Assembly: GCF_036507355.1 (NCBI RefSeq)
Contig: NZ_AP027877.1
DNA from: Escherichia coli
Lineage (GTDB): Bacteria; Pseudomonadota; Gammaproteobacteria; Enterobacterales; Enterobacteriaceae
Strand: one strand, 5' to 3'
Length of the DNA stretch: 64,000 nt
The position numbers and the translations under genes are program-made. Below, piece by piece: positions 22,867 to 28,525 of this stretch. Under the pieces are notes generated by a model, which made no database searches, was not told where the DNA came from, and worked only from the letters and a program-made list of their open reading frames with translations. Each line of letters opens with the position of its first letter. Within the stretch, counting starts at the first letter, position 1.

Positions 22867-23376
22867 ATGGCGACGCTGACAGAAGATGATGTGCTTGAGC
22901 AACTGGATGCACAGGACAATTTATTTTCATTTATGAAAACTGCGCATTCTATTTTGCTCCAGGGGATACGCCAGTTTCTGCCGTCGCTGTTTGTCGATAA
23001 CGATGAAGAGATCGTGGAATATGCAGTGAAGCCGTTACTCGCCCAAAGCGGCCCGCTTGACGATATTGATGTTGCACTGCGTTTGATTTATGCGCTGGGA
23101 AAAATGGATAAATGGCTGTACGCCGATATCACCCATTTTTCCCAGTTCTGGCATTACCTGAACGAACAGGATGAAACGCCCGGATTTGCCGATGACATGA
23201 CCTGGGATTTTATCAGCAACGTCAATAGCATAACCTGCAATGCGACGCTCTATGACGCGTTGAAAGCGATGAAGTTCGCCGATTTCGCCGTCTGGTCAGA
23301 GGCGCGTTTTAGCGGGATGGTCAAAACGGCGCTGACGCTGGCAGTAACGACCACCTTAAAGGAATTAACGCCGTGA
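22867..23376 (+). CDS. yggD: MtlR-like regulatory protein YggD
   Basis: 169-aa ORF MATLTEDDVLEQLDAQDNLFSFMKTAHSILLQGIRQFLPSLFVDNDEEIVEYAV... Confidence 0.85.
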   Translation: MATLTEDDVLEQLDAQDNLFSFMKTAHSILLQGIRQFLPSLFVDNDEEIVEYAVKPLLAQSGPLDDIDVALRLIYALGKMDKWLYADITHFSQFWHYLNEQDETPGFADDMTWDFISNVNSITCNATLYDALKAMKFADFAVWSEARFSGMVKTALTLAVTTTLKELTP

Positions 23377-24086
23377 AAATTGAATTAACGGTGAATGGGC
23401 TGAACGTGCAAGCGCAGTACCATGATGAAGAGATAGAACGCGTGCATAAACCGTTGCTGCGTATGCTGGCGGCCTTACAGACGGTAAATCCGCAGCGCCG
23501 AACCGTGGTTTTTCTTTGCGCTCCGCCGGGGACGGGTAAATCTACCCTAACCACCTTCTGGGAATATCTCGCGCAACAAGACCCGGAGCTGCCCGCTATT
23601 CAGACGCTCCCGATGGATGGTTTTCACCATTACAATAGCTGGCTGGATGCGCATCAATTGCGCCCCTTCAAAGGCGCACCAGAGACATTTGACGTTGCGA
23701 AACTGGCGGAAAATCTGCGCCAGGTCGTGGAAGGGGATTGTACGTGGCCGCAGTACGATCGACAAAAGCATGATCCTGTTGAAGATGCGTTGCACGTTAC
23801 CGCACCACTCGTCATCGTCGAAGGAAACTGGTTGTTGCTGGACGACGAGAAGTGGTGCCAGCTTGCGCAATTTTGTGATTTCTCGATCTTTATCAATGCG
23901 CCAGCTACTGCGTTGCGGGAACGACTGGTGGGGCGCAAGCTGGCGGGAGGGTTATCGCTGGCAGACGCAGAAGCTTTTTATGACCGTACCGACGGGCCGA
24001 ATGTTCGCCGGGTGCTGGAAGAGAGTCTGCCTGCTAATTTGACTTTAATGATGACCGCTACGGGTGAATATCGTCTGGTTGATTAA
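23373..24086 (+). CDS. yggC: P-loop kinase-like protein YggC
   Basis: 237-aa ORF MKIELTVNGLNVQAQYHDEEIERVHKPLLRMLAALQTVNPQRRTVVFLCAPPGTGKSTL... with Walker A; 3' end overlapped convergently by the following ATPase gene. Confidence 0.85.
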   Translation: MKIELTVNGLNVQAQYHDEEIERVHKPLLRMLAALQTVNPQRRTVVFLCAPPGTGKSTLTTFWEYLAQQDPELPAIQTLPMDGFHHYNSWLDAHQLRPFKGAPETFDVAKLAENLRQVVEGDCTWPQYDRQKHDPVEDALHVTAPLVIVEGNWLLLDDEKWCQLAQFCDFSIFINAPATALRERLVGRKLAGGLSLADAEAFYDRTDGPNVRRVLEESLPANLTLMMTATGEYRLVD

Positions 24087-24735
24087 CGTTCCTGATTAGA
24101 CCATCTTCCAGTCGCACCACACGAGAGAAATGACGCCGGGTAAATGCGGCGTCATGACTGATTGCTACGACGCTCGTGCCTCGCTGGCGGCACTTCTCCA
24201 GCCAGCTTTCAAACACGCTCAACCAATTTTCGTCAAAATCCCGACTCGGCTCGTCCAGCAGCAATAGTGGCGGAGAGAGTGCTTCCAGGCAGGCGACGGC
24301 GACCATCCGTCGCTGCGCACTATGCAGATCCAACGGATGCGCGCTGGCAGTGTCTGCTAACTGACAACATTGCAGGGCAGCATGGGTACGTTGAGTGATT
24401 TCATCCGCCGGGCATTTTTGCAGTTTCAAACCAAATGCGATCTCGTCGGCGACGGTGCTATGAAAAAGCTGGTTTTCCGCTTCCTGAAACAGTACGCCAA
24501 TCTTTGCCGCGCGCTGGCGGTTTTTCAGGTTTTTCATCGCCTGTTGTTGCAGCATAACCGTACCGGCTGTGGGCGTAAGAAGACCTGCCATTACTCGTAA
24601 CAGCGTCGATTTCCCTGCGCCATTGTCGCCGGTCAGCGCCAACCATTCACCTTGTTTGAGTTGCAGAGAAATGTCGCAAAGACAATCCGTTGCCGCGCCA
24701 GGCCAGCGATAAGATATCTGATTTAACGTTAACAT
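24058..24735 (-). CDS. ECF/CbiO-type ABC transporter ATPase, second subunit, degenerate signature motif
   Basis: ORF 24058-24768; likely start MLTLNQISYRW at 24735; Walker A GDNGAGKST, Walker B LLLLDEP, H-loop SHD, signature LSGGQ replaced by LHSAQ. Confidence 0.75.
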   Translation of the reverse strand: MLTLNQISYRWPGAATDCLCDISLQLKQGEWLALTGDNGAGKSTLLRVMAGLLTPTAGTVMLQQQAMKNLKNRQRAAKIGVLFQEAENQLFHSTVADEIAFGLKLQKCPADEITQRTHAALQCCQLADTASAHPLDLHSAQRRMVAVACLEALSPPLLLLDEPSRDFDENWLSVFESWLEKCRQRGTSVVAISHDAAFTRRHFSRVVRLEDGLIRNVNQPDDIHP

Positions 24736-25412
24736 AGTGGCTGGAGTGCTCCGTTTTGCAATTGCCACGCTTGCTGGCAGTAGTTCAGGAAAGGTGTGCG
24801 ATGACGTTCAAAAAGAATAATCAGCGAACCACGTTCAAACGCCCAGTGTTGTAAGCGCTGCAACAGCATTTCGCTGGCCTGCGGCGTCAGGCGGCTAAAG
24901 GCTTCATCAAGAATTAATAGCTTTGGCTGCATCGCGATGGCGCAGGCGATGACCACGCGCTGTGTCTCTCCACCGGAGAGTGTTGCCGGGTGACGATGGC
25001 GCAACGGCTGGCACTCGGTCAGAGTCAGGGCGGCATCAATCCGCGCCATAATCTCTGCTTCAGCAAGACACAGATTTTCTGGCCCAAAGGCAACTTCTTC
25101 TTCCACGCTAAAGGTACAGCCGGAGAGCTGCAAATAAGGCGATTGCTGGACGAGCTGGATGGTGGCGGATTGTTCATTAAGCGGGAGATGCCCAATGGGC
25201 GTACCGAGGAGCGTCCCCGTGCCTGTTATCTCTCCTGGCAGAAAGTCCGGATACCAGCCCGCCATCAGCTGTGCCAGCGTACTTTTGCCACTGCCGTTGT
25301 CACCAAAGATGGCGACCATCCCCGGTTTGACATAGTGAAAGTCATAACAGAACGGAGGATGCGTTGAGTGTGTCGGGCAATAACGGAACTGTTCTAACGT
25401 AACCATATCCAC
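24729..25412 (-). CDS. ECF/CbiO-type ABC transporter ATPase, first subunit
   Basis: 227-aa ORF MDMVTLEQFRYC...; Walker A GDNGSGKST, signature LSGGETQRV, Walker B LLILDEA; overlaps the next ATPase gene by 7 nt. Confidence 0.78.
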   Translation of the reverse strand: MDMVTLEQFRYCPTHSTHPPFCYDFHYVKPGMVAIFGDNGSGKSTLAQLMAGWYPDFLPGEITGTGTLLGTPIGHLPLNEQSATIQLVQQSPYLQLSGCTFSVEEEVAFGPENLCLAEAEIMARIDAALTLTECQPLRHRHPATLSGGETQRVVIACAIAMQPKLLILDEAFSRLTPQASEMLLQRLQHWAFERGSLIILFERHRTPFLNYCQQAWQLQNGALQPLC

Positions 25413-26101
25413 GCTCCGAATTCTGTCAGCATCAGCAAGATCATGGTGTAACGCGCTACGCGTTGTAGGGTGCTATCGGCTGGTGCCCACAACGTTGTTC
25501 GTCGGTTGTGGATCCGAAATGCCCGCATATCCAGCGCCGCACCACGGACAGCAAGATCGTTTAGCGCATTGTGTGTTAGCGGAATAATTAACGCGGACAT
25601 CGCACGTAAACGCTGATACCAGCCCTCATCCAGCGGCACGCCGCGGGCACGCTGCGCTTCATGAATAATCGCTAATTGCCGTTTTAACTGCTCAACGACC
25701 AATAACGGCCCGGCAAACAGATAAGCGACGCCTGGCGGCAGGCGAGAAGCAAACAGAGTGCGGATAAAACATTGCACGGGGACGTACTGCATCCACAACT
25801 GTGAGGTTGAAACAATCGCCAGAATCCGCAACCAGAGCGTAATAGCATGCGTCCAACGCTCCGGCGAACGCGGCGTGCCGCTTAGCCATTCTGTTAGCCA
25901 GCCACCGTGTACCAGCCACAGCCCGGCTCCCAGCGAGAACATCAGCCAGGCGACATATTTTGCCCGCCGCCGCGTGGCCTTTAGCGCAATAAGGCAAAAA
26001 AAGGTCGCCGCGCTATAGATCGGCAAAATGGTCTGCGCGGGCAGGATAAGCGTGGTGCAGGCCGCCAATGCCCATAGTGTTAATGAGGTAAATGGATGCA
26101 T
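25394..26101 (-). CDS. ECF transporter transmembrane T component (CbiQ/EcfT-like)
   Basis: 235-aa polytopic ORF MHPFTSLTLWALAACTTLILPAQ... with Arg-rich ...EAQRARGVPL... segment typical of EcfT; its ATG directly abuts the stop of the upstream gene. Confidence 0.7.
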   Translation of the reverse strand: MHPFTSLTLWALAACTTLILPAQTILPIYSAATFFCLIALKATRRRAKYVAWLMFSLGAGLWLVHGGWLTEWLSGTPRSPERWTHAITLWLRILAIVSTSQLWMQYVPVQCFIRTLFASRLPPGVAYLFAGPLLVVEQLKRQLAIIHEAQRARGVPLDEGWYQRLRAMSALIIPLTHNALNDLAVRGAALDMRAFRIHNRRTTLWAPADSTLQRVARYTMILLMLTEFGAWIWLR

Positions 26102-26680
26102 TTAGCGCACGGCAGCCATTGCCGGAAAATGGCGCGTGGTGCGAATCGGCAGCTGGCGCAGTAAAAGCCAGACAATCACCGCTGTAAGAGTTTTATCGAC
26201 CAGGTTCGCGCCTATCACCGTAATCGCCACCGACTCCACCAGGTTTTGCCCCATCGAGTGCATCCAGGCAACGAACAAATCGGCTCCGCTACCGGTGACA
26301 CCGCCGAACAGCGCAGTACGCAGCGGTACAGCGACGACCGTTACCGCAAGCGTAATAATCACGCCGCTGACAACGACTTTTGGTAGGGTGCGAAACCAAC
26401 CCGCTCGCGCCAGCCAACCGGCGACCAGGCCGATGACCATCGCGACGGGTGCAAATGCGGCGGCGATCGGGTCGGTCAGCAATCCCCAGAGTAAATTGGT
26501 CAGTAAGCCGGTCAGCATTCCGATCACCGGACCAAGCAGTACCGCGCTAATAAGTGTGCCGATGGAGTCGAGAAATATAGGTAATTTGACCATGCTGGCC
26601 AGTTGCCCGCCGATCATATTGATGGCGATAGATATAACGATCAACACCAGTGCCTGACTGGAAAAGTGGCTACGCGCCAT
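26102..26680 (-). CDS. ECF transporter substrate-capture S component (predicted)
   Basis: ORF 26102-26779; likely start MARSHFSSQALVLIVISIAINMIGGQLASMVKLPIFLDSIGTLISAVLLGP... at 26680; about 6 TM helices; resembles ThiW/YkoE-type S components; substrate unknown. Confidence 0.6.
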   Translation of the reverse strand: MARSHFSSQALVLIVISIAINMIGGQLASMVKLPIFLDSIGTLISAVLLGPVIGMLTGLLTNLLWGLLTDPIAAAFAPVAMVIGLVAGWLARAGWFRTLPKVVVSGVIITLAVTVVAVPLRTALFGGVTGSGADLFVAWMHSMGQNLVESVAITVIGANLVDKTLTAVIVWLLLRQLPIRTTRHFPAMAAVR

Positions 26681-26702
26681 AAGAAAACCTCTCTGAAAGT
26701 AG

Positions 26703-27134
26703 TTATTTAACGGGGGAAATATGCAACTCGTCGTAACCAGAAAGCGCGCAAGGTTGGCGGCTAAACGCCAGTTCCTCAAAGCTACCGATCACCAGTTCAA
26801 GCGTGGTCCGCACGGTACAGCCGGGCATCATATGACCGCCAAGCATCGTGCCGTGTGGATCGGAAACGCAGAGATGAAGATGCTCACCACTCTGTTCCAA
26901 CGTGCCGTTTAGTGAGATCACTTCGAATGTACCGTTCAGGAGCGTGGTGCCTTCTTGCCCGGCATAGCGCAAGGCGATGTCAGTCAGGCTACCGGTACAG
27001 CCTGCAATCCAGGCGGCATGAAGTTGCTGCTGCTGTGCAAAAGCGTGTAGCTGGGAAAAAACTTCCTGCCCGGGGAGGAGGCGCAGTGCGTAAAAGCGTG
27101 CGGAGGAAGAATATGGGTAGGGCAATGTCATCAT
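26703..27134 (-). CDS. DUF296 / PPC-domain protein (143 aa), first gene of the ECF operon
   Basis: ORF MMTLPYPYSSSARFYALRLLPGQEVFSQLHAF...GEHLHLCVSDPHGTMLGGHMMPGCTVRTTLELVIGSF... fits the PPC/DUF296 pattern. Confidence 0.65.
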   Translation of the reverse strand: MMTLPYPYSSSARFYALRLLPGQEVFSQLHAFAQQQQLHAAWIAGCTGSLTDIALRYAGQEGTTLLNGTFEVISLNGTLEQSGEHLHLCVSDPHGTMLGGHMMPGCTVRTTLELVIGSFEELAFSRQPCALSGYDELHISPVK

Positions 27135-27262
27135 TGGAGTACTCCGAAACTCGGACGTATTGCGGATAATATCGACGCTGCATCAGTCATATTCTGATAT
27201 AAGTCAGGGTTTGTGACGGCACAACGAAAAGATTTTGCTACGCTTATTCGTGATTCTGCAAA

Positions 27263-27278
27263 GTGGAATAAATTCCAC
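27263..27278. promoter_or_regulatory. inverted repeat GTGGAAT-AA-ATTCCAC in the divergent ECF-operon / epd intergenic region (possible operator)
   Basis: 7-bp arms with 2-bp spacer; a second ATTCCAC half-site lies at about 27349-27355; binding factor unknown. Confidence 0.25.
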
Positions 27279-27505
27279 AGGGGCGGGGCTGAAAACGTGA
27301 CGTAAGTCAGATAATTGTTTTCTTTGACTGGACAATCATTCCTTTTATTCCACGTTTCGCTTATCCTAGCTGAAGCGTTTCAGTCGATTAAATGTTCGAC
27401 AATTAACCAATCAGTCGCAGTTTGCGACAGGTAAGGTTTCCCCGGACGATTTGCTGGATTACTCTGTCTGGCAAATTTGCTCAGGGAAAACCTTGCAGGA
27501 GATCT

Positions 27506-28525
27506 ATGACCGTACGCGTAGCGATAAATGGCTTCGGTCGCATCGGGCGTAATGTGGTTCGTGCTTTGTATGAATCCGGACGCCGGGCGGAAATTACCGT
27601 GGTGGCAATCAACGAACTGGCGGATGCTGCGGGCATGGCGCATTTGTTGAAATATGACACCAGCCATGGCCGTTTTGCATGGGAAGTACGACAGGAACGC
27701 GATCAACTTTTTGTTGGTGATGACGCCATCCGCGTATTGCATGAACGTTCACTGCAATCGCTCCCCTGGCGTGAACTTGGCGTTGATGTAGTCCTCGACT
27801 GCACCGGCGTATATGGCTCCCGCGAGCATGGCGAAGCGCATATTGCCGCCGGGGCCAAAAAAGTGCTCTTTTCACATCCTGGCAGTAACGATCTCGACGC
27901 GACCGTTGTTTACGGCGTCAATCAGGATCAACTTCGTGCGGAACACCGCATCGTTTCTAACGCTTCCTGTACCACGAATTGCATAATTCCCGTCATCAAA
28001 TTGTTAGATGATGCGTACGGTATTGAGTCCGGCACTGTGACCACAATTCACTCCGCCATGCACGATCAACAGGTTATTGATGCATACCATCCTGACCTGC
28101 GTCGCACCCGGGCAGCCAGCCAGTCGATCATTCCGGTCGATACTAAACTGGCCGCCGGTATCACACGATTTTTTCCGCAATTTAACGATCGCTTTGAAGC
28201 GATTGCGGTACGTGTGCCAACCATAAATGTGACGGCAATCGATTTAAGCGTGACGGTGAAGAAACCTGTAAAAGCCAATGAAGTCAACCTGTTGCTGCAA
28301 AAAGCAGCACAAGGTGCATTTCATGGTATAGTTGACTATACGGAATTGCCGTTGGTCTCTGTAGATTTTAACCACGATCCGCACAGTGCCATTGTCGATG
28401 GCACCCAAACCCGGGTCAGTGGCGCACACCTGATCAAAACGTTGGTCTGGTGCGATAACGAATGGGGCTTTGCTAACCGAATGCTCGACACGACGTTAGC
28501 TATGGCTACTGTTGCTTTCAGGTAA
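27506..28525 (+). CDS. epd: D-erythrose-4-phosphate dehydrogenase
   Basis: ORF 27422-28525; start at ATG 27506 gives the 339-aa product [55 protein letters not shown]... Confidence 0.95.

Follow-up and report, generated by a model that had tools for sequence, protein, structure and literature searches.

Between epd and yggC, on the 64,000-nucleotide stretch of Escherichia coli DNA analyzed here (contig NZ_AP027877.1; the window), lie five intact minus-strand genes, and both the ORF listing and the sequence bore out the coordinates and the five-gene DUF296/ECF operon of the original prediction. The first gene (26703-27134) encodes a PCC/DUF296 protein of 143 amino acids, whose sole Pfam domain, PF03479, is matched across 116 of 117 model positions (E = 1.8e-28). 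It is followed, after a gap of 22 nucleotides, by a predicted ECF S component (26102-26680; 192 amino acids from ATG, in a reading frame that stays open upstream to a TTG at 26779) that matches ECF_trnsprt (PF12822; E = 8e-8). The T component (25394-26101; 235 amino acids), named EcfT in RefSeq, adjoins the S gene without a gap (TAAATG); it has a weak match to Pfam CbiQ (PF02361; E = 7.5e-5), none to any NCBIfam model, and the coupling arginine motifs QRARG (150-154) and DMRAF (191-195). The last two genes encode the ABC_tran ATPases A1 (24729-25406; 225 amino acids in RefSeq, or 227 if started at GTG 25412) and A2 (24058-24735; 225 amino acids, or 236 from GTG 24768). The predicted 19-nucleotide overlap of T and A1 holds from the GTG start and amounts to 13 nucleotides from the ATG, A1 and A2 overlap by 7 nucleotides, and the 3' end of A2 overlaps the convergent yggC (23373-24086) by 29 bp, the last two as predicted. 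RefSeq annotates the same five genes in a strain that is 99.6% identical, and neither the ORF listing nor the RefSeq annotation contains a solute-binding protein gene in or beside the operon.

[quoted passage not shown]

Transporter components and the ATPase pair

The Pfam assignments (PF03479, PF12822, CbiQ, and twice ABC_tran) agree with the predicted identity of a DUF296 protein plus S, T, and two ATPases. Its sequence marks the cluster as an operon for a dedicated ("group I") ECF-type ABC importer, complete in itself, for which ATP-dependent uptake is predicted. Features in common with the group I systems BioMNY and CbiMNQO are the grouping of the S, T, and ATPase genes in one operon without a solute-binding protein, an S fold similar to that of solved S components, and two arginine motifs in the T component; in contrast to these systems, the operon has two different ATPases, one site of which is degenerate, and a conserved PCC/DUF296 gene alongside. 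The S component would act as the membrane-embedded substrate binder and the T component as the scaffold.

The best NCBIfam model for the S component is NF045596 (134 bits; E = 3.6e-39), the "CD3073 family putative ECF transporter S component," a family that is itself uncharacterized. The same model scores highest for its relatives (127 to 156 bits), and since all of these scores fall below the curated cut-off of 180 bits, the S components here form a sister group rather than part of that family. Near one true NF045596 member (P0137) there are genes with IF-2B and APH domains; MtnA and MtnK, enzymes of methylthioribose salvage, belong to these Pfam families. For the AF2 model of the S component (pLDDT 85), the nearest solved folds are RibU, FolT, PanT, ThiT, and BioY (Foldseek probability, 1.0). 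A homologous ECF system whose substrate is proven, which the original prediction had named as grounds for its refutation, was not found.

The best NCBIfam matches of A1 and A2 are ECF_ATPase_1/2 and cbiO, all below their equivalog cut-offs, and in Enterobacteriaceae both proteins lack the C-terminal extension of ~50 to 60 amino acids typical of EcfA. The proposal that these short ATPases form an asymmetric pair was upheld, with LSGGE in A1 (143-147), LHSAQ in A2 (137-141), and the pattern kept in 20 orthologs. A1 combines a canonical Walker A and signature with a D-loop SRLT and an H-loop in which the histidine is replaced (FERHR); this histidine is absent across the 20 orthologs, and Walker B reads LDQ in Aeromonas, Ferrimonas, and Laribacter. 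A2 has canonical Walker A, Walker B, and H-loop (ISHD) motifs with a degenerate signature, LH[ST]AQ or LDAGQ across the 20 orthologs in place of the canonical LSGGQ. The competent site would thus combine Walker A, Walker B, and H-loop of A2 with the LSGGE of A1, and the degenerate site would combine the Walker A of A1, without its H-loop histidine, with the LHSAQ of A2. These motifs describe a predicted A1/A2 heterodimer with one consensus and one degenerate ATP site, conserved family-wide and newly described here. The same pattern, a signature defect in one subunit and an H-loop or catalytic defect in its partner that fall into one composite site, is found in TM287/288, TAP1/2, and CFTR, heterodimeric ABC systems with one degenerate site; these function as exporters or channels, and their transmembrane domains are fused. 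We know of no description of such asymmetry as a hallmark of ECF importers, and a conserved ATPase pair with a single active site would be an unusual ECF motor design.

Ancestry of the operon and its upstream region

The original prediction placed the operon as an insertion between yggC and epd, a reading that did not hold. The arrangement epd–PCC-S-T-A1-A2–yggC recurs in E. albertii, E. whittamii, Citrobacter, Silvania, Superficieibacter, and Phytobacter, and the PCC protein is 83% identical to its Salmonella ortholog (PDB 2HX0/2NMU; E = 2e-74). Because this synteny is common to many genera and the Salmonella ortholog is so similar, the operon-plus state is read as ancestral to Enterobacteriaceae; on these comparisons the operon, present in 3,319 of 5,426 complete E. 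coli genomes, was lost from ~39% of E. coli, including K-12. The stated adjacency of yggC and epd in K-12 was correct, in that a K-12-type genome has a 284-bp spacer there and no operon. Inside yggC, a sliding-identity comparison shows DNA identity between the operon-plus and K-12 haplotypes falling from 100% to ~62% at window position ~23835, and K-12 therefore has a replaced segment rather than an empty insertion site. Together with megablast, this places the differing segment at 23835..27284, comprising the 3' third of yggC, the operon, and its promoter; its right break is set by the alignment and by K-12-type genomes matching only query positions 3228-3448 (megablast). The K-12 haplotype thus has the appearance of a replacement in which the 3' third of yggC was exchanged as well. 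Between genera, the S component is 86 to 91% identical compared with 66 to 73% for YggC, a difference that points to strong purifying selection on the operon.

The order PCC–S–T–A1–A2 has been retained at about 70 of 80 genome loci (Enterobacterales, Aeromonas, Ferrimonas, Neisseriales, Rhizobiales, and Paracoccus), and among 35 closer metagenome loci the PCC gene lies immediately upstream of S in 33; in Anaerolineae it adjoins the ECF genes but is convergent. This synteny across several phyla is newly described here.

Upstream of the operon, an alignment of 17 Enterobacteriaceae regions revealed a conserved CRP/FNR-type palindrome on the minus strand (CTGAC-TTAT-ATCAG, 27194..27207; CTGAT...ATCAG in most genera), a candidate site, newly described here, whose center lies 41.5 bp upstream of the inferred transcription start. 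Taken alone, the E. coli palindrome departs from the FNR consensus at three positions, a match that is common and not significant, and it has C/G at the discriminating outer positions; in Morganellaceae and Aeromonas, no palindrome was found. All further elements lie on the minus strand as well. The inferred -10 hexamer TATTAT (27166..27171), part of the conserved block (G)ATATTATC, was missed by a consensus promoter scan because the -35 is poor. A conserved 5'-UTR hairpin (TCCGA-GTT-TCGGA, 27143..27155) takes in part of the Shine-Dalgarno GGAG and has one compensatory variant (TCCGG...CCGGA in Superficieibacter), with an unexceptional folding energy (z = -1.18). A further conserved block (CAGAAT..CGAATAAGCGTAGCAA.ATCTTTTCGTTG, 27222..27258) has no counterpart in K-12. 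The original prediction had noted no TPP-riboswitch-like motif upstream, and the Rfam search likewise gave no riboswitch: with E values up to 10 allowed, a chance snoRNA match was the sole result for the operon and its surroundings.

Transcription of the operon would start at a weak sigma-70 promoter and depend on a CRP/FNR-family activator at -41.5. The likeliest candidate is FNR, so that the operon is proposed to be switched on anaerobically. The position of the conserved palindrome fits the SalComMac data for the Salmonella five-gene operon, which suggest anaerobic activation (PMC11481890).

The PCC protein and the cargo

The PCC product goes under RefSeq and UniRef names such as "PPC domain-containing DNA-binding protein" or "putative regulator of transporter operon," which would make it a transcription factor autoregulating the operon. 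Its place as the first gene and the conserved upstream blocks without an assigned role agree with such a function, which we nevertheless consider very improbable. The PPC name comes from the AT-hook proteins of plants, where contact with DNA is made by the AT-hook and not by the PPC domain, and this origin of the label counts against DNA binding by the domain. The plant AHL proteins share the Pfam family and fold of the PCC protein, as do PDB 2HX0, 2NMU, 2P6Y, 2DT4, 2H6L, 3HTN, and 3HWU, but the AT-hook of the plant proteins is absent here, and the Pfam search gave PCC alone, with no helix-turn-helix or other DNA-binding domain. Moreover, in the distant branch the PCC gene is convergent and downstream of the operon, and in Fretibacterium it adjoins a TAXI-TRAP transporter instead.

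The structure points elsewhere: it is a beta-sandwich whose nearest counterpart is an enzyme, and it carries an invariant histidine triad. The PCC model matches 2HX0 and 2NMU with a TM score of 0.86 to 0.87; none of the structural-genomics PCC/DUF296 proteins has an assigned function, and one family member, 2H6L, bears the title "metal-containing protein." Within the invariant motif E84-H85-x-H87 ... G99-G100-H101, the histidines H85, H87, and H101 are conserved without exception across 16 diverse homologs; no cysteine is invariant. The best structural match outside the family is to acetolactate decarboxylases (ALDC, BudA/AlsD; Foldseek E ~1e-3, TM 0.5), which share the motif G-x-H-L-H ... G-G-H and whose histidines bind zinc. 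A weak hhalign alignment (E = 0.027 over 83 columns) sets the three PCC histidines on the invariant ALDC HxH...H. The PCC protein covers about half of the enzyme with marginal sequence similarity. Membership in the alpha-acetolactate decarboxylase family itself was rejected: 143 amino acids face a two-domain enzyme of ~250, the target-normalized TM score is ~0.33, and only the histidine triad motif is common to both. Because its invariant HxH...H aligns with the three conserved ALDC histidines, we newly propose that the PCC protein is probably a metalloprotein and not a DNA binder. It would act in the cytoplasm as a metal-dependent enzyme or ligand-binding protein on the imported compound.

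A probable metal site, together with the 2H6L title, could also be reconciled with the current database and literature label, that is, an importer of cobalt or another divalent metal with the PCC protein as metal acceptor, chaperone, or metal-sensing regulator. PMC11481890 refers to a 2018 thesis by Piotrowska in which Co2+ import is suggested, along with a regulatory function of the PCC protein STM3071; the locus was historically annotated as cbiQ/cbiO (PMC3032704), and anaerobic induction would match Salmonella B12 synthesis and parallel nik. The label arises because the T component and ATPases resemble those of CbiMNQO/NikMNQO. In contrast to these metal transporters, none of the five proteins matched a CbiM/NikM-type or CbiN model (NCBIfam at E ≤ 0.01, Pfam), CbiM structures are absent from the Foldseek matches of the S model, and the S family alignment has no invariant His, Cys, or Met. 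Neither for the window region nor for any of 26 related loci did Rfam give a cobalamin riboswitch, and the neighbors are epd and yggC, with no linkage to a cob operon. In addition, the operon is kept both in E. coli, which cannot make B12 de novo, and in Salmonella, which already has CbiMNQO, and its distant relatives sit inside nucleoside hydrolase/ribokinase operons. We therefore regard a metal cargo as rather unlikely, and both the "cobalt transport" and the "DNA-binding protein" labels look like annotation carry-over.

These distant relatives provide the main clue to the substrate. Genes for RihA/RihC-like nucleoside hydrolases stand next to those of the ECF system at 31 of 42 distant metagenome loci, often together with a ribokinase (above the curated cut-off) and a convergent PCC gene, and the link recurs with a different gene order in Anaerolineae and three alphaproteobacterial genomes. 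None of the 38 close and middle-branch metagenome loci has a nucleoside hydrolase beside the operon, nor do Enterobacteriaceae or other closer relatives, which is why the substrate assignment relies on distant homologs (36 to 47% S identity). These may differ in specificity from the enterobacterial system, and the hydrolase-linked loci may stem from few lineages. Still, the gene neighborhoods suggest that the cargo is more likely a nucleoside-like compound than cobalt; it would belong to the small organic micronutrients, with a nucleoside or similar molecule as its most likely identity.

It is tempting to speculate that this compound carries sulfur or selenium, for instance a thio- or seleno-modified nucleoside, with the PCC protein and DsrE-like carriers releasing the element and passing it on, and with anaerobic Se/S demand as the need met in enterics. 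DsrE/DsrF-family genes of two subfamilies flank the PCC-ECF operon in nine loci, in two positions, with selD following one, and a putative 2-thiouracil desulfurase follows the ATPases in L005/L006. The nucleoside hydrolases and ribokinase of the distant branch fit such a cargo too, and anaerobic induction would coincide with the demand for selenoprotein formate dehydrogenase. However, this is guilt by association throughout, and it comes from lineages other than E. coli. Beside the enterobacterial operon there is neither a DsrE-like gene nor selD (window ORFs, genome loci), the PCC cysteines are not invariant, and the desulfurase link comes from one organism with a weak Pfam match. We consider this version distinctly unlikely.

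A known system with some likeness is the queuosine salvage cluster queK-qrtT-queL of Clostridioides difficile (PMC11477304, PMC11130926), which, like the distant branch, combines an S component assigned to PF12822 and an IU-type nucleoside hydrolase. Unlike that cluster, the operon here has its own T component and ATPases, and no preQ1 riboswitch was found in related loci (Rfam); no QueL radical-SAM gene was seen in the loci examined. A QPTR/YhhQ-family gene adjoins PCC in three loci, all from distant relatives.

Significance for enterobacteria and the PCC family

Taken as a whole, the best explanation, which we hold tentatively and at a little under an even chance, is an ancestral group I ECF importer with asymmetric ATPases, FNR-type anaerobic control, a metal-dependent PCC protein, and a nucleoside-like cargo other than Co2+. 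Most E. coli, Salmonella, and many other enterics thus carry an ECF transporter that K-12 lacks; to our knowledge, K-12, the usual ECF-free host, has no ECF transporter at all. The reported anaerobic switch-on of the operon corresponds to gut conditions.

For the bacterial PCC/DUF296 proteins, structures have been solved since 2006 with function still unassigned, and the linkage to an importer, nucleoside hydrolases, ribokinase, and DsrE-like carriers, together with the ALDC-like metal site, narrows the question of function to direct experiments. As a long shot, the PCC-ECF module could be an unrecognized salvage system for modified nucleosides (possibly thio-, seleno-, or queuosine-type), in which the ECF transporter imports the nucleoside, the hydrolases and ribokinase strip and recycle the ribose, the PCC protein, as a new His3-metal enzyme family, processes the modified base, and sulfur or selenium goes to DsrE-like carriers. 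If true, this would give the bacterial PPC domain its first biochemical function and would reveal an anaerobically induced micronutrient route that is missing from K-12.

Genes, synteny, and the K-12 haplotype

The minus strand of the window carries, between 24058 and 27134, five genes that are all intact according to the ORF listing and the sequence. They encode a PCC/DUF296 protein (26703-27134, 143 amino acids [aa]; Pfam PCC, 1.8e-28), the substrate-specific (S) component of an ECF transporter (26102-26680, 192 aa; ECF_trnsprt, 8e-8), its scaffold (T) component (25394-26101, 235 aa; CbiQ, 7.5e-5), and two ABC ATPases of 225 aa each, A1 (24729-25406) and A2 (24058-24735), both matching ABC_tran. 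A 22-nt gap separates PCC from S, S and T meet at TAAATG, A1 runs 7 nt into A2, and the 3' end of A2 reaches 29 bp into the convergent yggC. The original prediction had described gene content, order, junctions, and overlaps correctly in all details checked, and the HMM comparison that it proposed bears out all five domain assignments; its 19-nt overlap between T and A1 holds for a GTG start, an ATG start giving 13 nt. Among NCBIfam models, the S component is nearest to the uncharacterized CD3073 family (NF045596; 134 bits versus a cut-off of 180), and both ATPases are nearest to ECF ATPase models. We class the operon as an ECF transporter of the dedicated type. The same five genes are annotated by RefSeq in a 99.6% identical strain, and the locus is mentioned in the literature; our literature search found no paper linking DUF296 to ECF transporters and no description of this kind of ECF nucleoside system.

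The whole cluster is present in 3,319 of 5,426 complete E. coli genomes, while in the remainder, K-12 and B derivatives among them, the match is limited to the last ~220 bp before epd. As stated in the original prediction, yggC adjoins epd in a K-12-type genome, with a spacer of 284 bp and no operon. The accompanying idea that the operon had been inserted there is reversed: the order pgk–epd–[PCC-S-T-A1-A2]–yggC–fumE is common to E. whittamii, E. albertii, Silvania, several Citrobacter, Superficieibacter, and Phytobacter, and Salmonella holds a PCC ortholog of 83% identity (crystal structures 2HX0/2NMU), so that the operon is ancestral and was lost in K-12 rather than gained in the window strain.

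Comparing the yggC C terminus with that of K-12, as had been suggested, did reveal a difference, but one that points to a replaced segment and not to an insertion. K-12 yggC (window counterpart, 23373-24086) is a mosaic, matching the window at 100% up to ~23835, where identity falls sharply to ~62% and does not recover before the stop codon; its first ~100 bp are also just 81 to 90% identical. Over its C-terminal 67 residues, K-12 YggC is 61% identical to the proteins of E. albertii and E. whittamii and equally far from those of other genera. Because of this break and this uniform distance, the operon-minus allele looks as if a short foreign segment had taken the place of ~3.4 kb (23835-27284); it represents neither a clean deletion nor an empty insertion site.

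Where the operon is retained, the S protein is 86 to 91% identical between genera versus 66 to 73% for YggC, which argues for strong purifying selection on S and against decay. In E. albertii NBRC 107761 (locus L011, 9720-10403), two ORFs take the place of the A1 gene, probably because of a frameshift, and the other four genes are intact. In Buttiauxella sp. B2 (locus L034), epd adjoins yggC as in K-12 and the operon lies ~5 kb away, so in some genera the module has changed its place in this region. A role of YggC as partner kinase was discarded, given that the operon lies away from yggC in many genera and that K-12 retains yggC without it.

The conserved module, its ATPases, and the PCC protein

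A PCC alignment, run against one genome of each species, yielded 80 loci, in ~70 of which S, T, A1, and A2 follow PCC directly or, in Anaerolineae, PCC is adjacent but convergent. The module occurs in Enterobacteriaceae, Morganellaceae, Budviciaceae, Aeromonas, Ferrimonas, Neisseriales, Rhizobiales, and Paracoccus. Clustering of flanking ORFs from 35 diverse genome loci revealed no universally kept neighbor besides the five genes; pyrD, selD, xthA, and RND pumps are lineage-specific flanks. A metagenome scan with a narrower S alignment, a 30-sequence alignment being too diverse, added 80 further loci, and among the 35 closer relatives with sufficient upstream sequence, 33 have PCC immediately 5' of S. 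Judged from these sequences, the conserved traits that distinguish the system are an obligatory PCC/DUF296 partner with a predicted three-histidine site like that of α-acetolactate decarboxylase (ALDC), an ATPase heterodimer with a single predicted competent site, and, in enterics, a predicted CRP/FNR-type class II promoter. Among the homologs, S-like membrane domains are also fused to the N terminus of sensor histidine kinases of 447 to 935 aa (the S homologs P0211, P0218, and P0230, as well as P0155 and P0164), which suggests that these kinases have adopted the ECF S fold for ligand sensing; separate from them are S-T fusion proteins of ~480 aa.

The motif pattern of the ATPases was compared in 20 orthologs. 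In A1, Walker A is retained and the signature is canonical (LSGGE/Q); the H-loop histidine is missing, with FER[HNTA] at the position of A2's ISHD, and the D-loop is SRLT. Three genera (Aeromonas, Ferrimonas, and Laribacter) have LDQ in the A1 Walker B. The Walker A, Walker B (LLLDEP), and H-loop (SHD) motifs of A2 are retained, with LH[ST]AQ or LDAGQ as signature. Since each ATP site of an ABC dimer is composed of the Walker side of one subunit and the signature of its partner, the defects of A1 and A2 fall into one and the same site. The second site is fully canonical and the motor would be asymmetric, which supports and extends the asymmetric heterodimer that had been proposed from the E. 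coli sequence. The shortness of the ATPases is an enterobacterial feature; the Proteus ATPases bear C-terminal extensions (~59 aa in A1 and ~50 aa in A2) that are missing in E. coli.

The PCC protein carries no Pfam domain besides PCC. Its AF2 model (pLDDT 88) superposes on 2HX0/2NMU, 2P6Y, 3HTN, 2DT4, and 3HWU, as well as on 2H6L, titled "Metal-containing Protein AF0104," and the next-best structural matches are ALDCs (E of ~1e-3, probability 1.0, TM score 0.5). Residues invariant in 16 homologs, the most distant of 35% identity, are H85, H87, H101, D92, E71, E113, R18, R56, and R126; the two cysteines vary. ALDC sequences from plasmids feature an invariant G-F-H-L-H ... G-G-G-H, and in the hhalign alignment each PCC histidine falls exactly on its ALDC counterpart, with a weak score (E of 0.027). 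In ALDC, the three histidines are the ligands of the catalytic zinc. From model and residue pattern, PCC is probably a metalloprotein and not a DNA binder. The "DNA-binding" label, which originates from plant AT-hook proteins, is unsupported by the defining features tested.

Gene order bears on the role of PCC as well. In the distant branch, i.e., S homologs of low identity to that of the window, the PCC gene lies downstream of the operon and convergent to it (9 of the 13 loci with sufficient downstream sequence), and in a Fretibacterium genome it stands beside a TAXI-TRAP transporter instead. These two arrangements favor a PCC tied to the cargo over a repressor or an ECF subunit. The TAXI-TRAP binding-protein and fused-permease families that adjoin the lone Fretibacterium PCC (locus L064) are also found just downstream of the PCC-ECF operon of Proteus cibi (locus L040).

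Candidate cargo

Metal, namely cobalt, is a minority reading of the cargo, against which several observations stand: the five proteins include no CbiM/NikM or CbiN by NCBIfam and Pfam; Rfam reveals no B12 riboswitch in the window region or in 26 related loci; the S family is devoid of invariant His, Cys, or Met; and the nearest matches of the S model are RibU, FolT, PanT, ThiT, an S component from 4HUQ, and BioY. The "cobalt" label is thus unsupported by the defining features tested. At an E value of ≤10, Rfam matched window positions 23000-28000 only by a chance snoRNA hit, in agreement with the earlier remark that no TPP-riboswitch-like motif was seen upstream; at the gathering threshold, the 26 related loci gave two tRNAs only and no riboswitch that would reveal the ligand.

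Neighborhoods of relatives point elsewhere. In the distant S branch (36 to 44% identity), 31 of 42 metagenome loci harbor one or two RihA/RihC-like nucleoside hydrolase (NH) genes, usually directly 5' of S; 10 of these also hold a ribokinase gene, two examples exceeding the curated TIGR02152 cut-off. Locus L142 reads PCC-NH-S-T-A1-A2 on one strand, and the hydrolase link recurs in two Anaerolineae genomes and, as PCC-S-T-A1-A2-NH, in three alphaproteobacterial genomes. Five metagenome loci have a DsrE/DsrF-family, sulfur-carrier-like gene upstream of PCC; such a gene lies downstream of A2 in Ferrimonas (L069, followed by selD) and three Neisseriales genomes. These flanking proteins come from two subfamilies (loci L112, L120, L123, L125, L127, L062, L065, L066, and L069). 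A putative 2-thiouracil desulfurase gene follows in one relative, and a QPTR/YhhQ-family gene adjoins PCC in three. None of these neighbors is found in Enterobacteriaceae. All S branches score similarly on the CD3073 model (127 to 156 bits); the branches could differ in specificity, and the hydrolase-linked contigs may come from few lineages. By analogy, we tentatively place a nucleoside or nucleoside-like organic micronutrient first among the predicted cargo classes, at a probability well below even; a thio-, seleno-, or queuosine-type nucleoside is the most novel of the readings and has a low probability. A true CD3073-family member, P0137 (loci L088/L089; 374 aa), has the S component duplicated in tandem and lies near genes with IF-2B and APH Pfam domains, families that include MtnA and MtnK of methylthioribose salvage.

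The enteric promoter region

Aligning 17 enterobacterial upstream regions revealed, in the operon-specific part and on the minus strand, a conserved palindrome, CTGAT-TTAT-ATCAG (CTGAC in E. coli; 27194-27207), and, 29 nt past it, a conserved −10-like TATTAT (27166-27171). A conserved hairpin, TCCGA-GTT-TCGGA (27143-27155, minus strand), takes in part of the Shine-Dalgarno sequence and has an ordinary folding energy (z of −1.18). The spacing to TATTAT puts the palindrome center at −41.5, the classic class II position of activators of the CRP/FNR family; no good −35 element is present, and a consensus promoter scan was empty at the operon promoter. The palindrome shares 7 of 10 positions with TTGAT-N4-ATCAA in E. 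coli, or 8 of 10 in most genera, and equally good matches are common across the window, so the case for CRP/FNR leans on conservation, position, and anaerobic activation of the Salmonella operon, the last of these suggested by SalComMac data in a Salmonella paper that mentions a putative five-gene ECF operon (PMC11481890). Together these fit a predicted CRP/FNR-type class II promoter of the enteric operon, compatible with anaerobic induction. The palindrome is not detectable outside Enterobacteriaceae, and for the operons of Morganellaceae, Aeromonas, and Neisseriales the upstream sequence yielded no FNR-type boxes (8 of 24 loci versus 4 expected by chance).

Another candidate operator, GTGGAATTTATTCCAC (27263-27278), is a perfect 7-2-7 palindrome 7 bp within the right K-12 breakpoint. 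It is perfect in E. coli and has one mismatch in E. whittamii and E. albertii; it was dropped as a family-wide site because the other genera keep only its right half (TTTATTCCAY). Nearer to epd, conserved and shared with K-12, are a CRP-like box, TCTGA-N6-TCACG (27296-27311; TCACA in most other genera), and a Cra-like box, GCTGAAGCGTTTCAG (27369-27383), both of which probably belong to the epd-pgk-fbaA promoter.

While its mechanism class is ordinary, the operon encodes an uncharacterized importer that would be induced under conditions like those of the gut and that the laboratory strain K-12 lacks, and the locus gives experimenters a direct way to ask what the bacterial PPC domain does.
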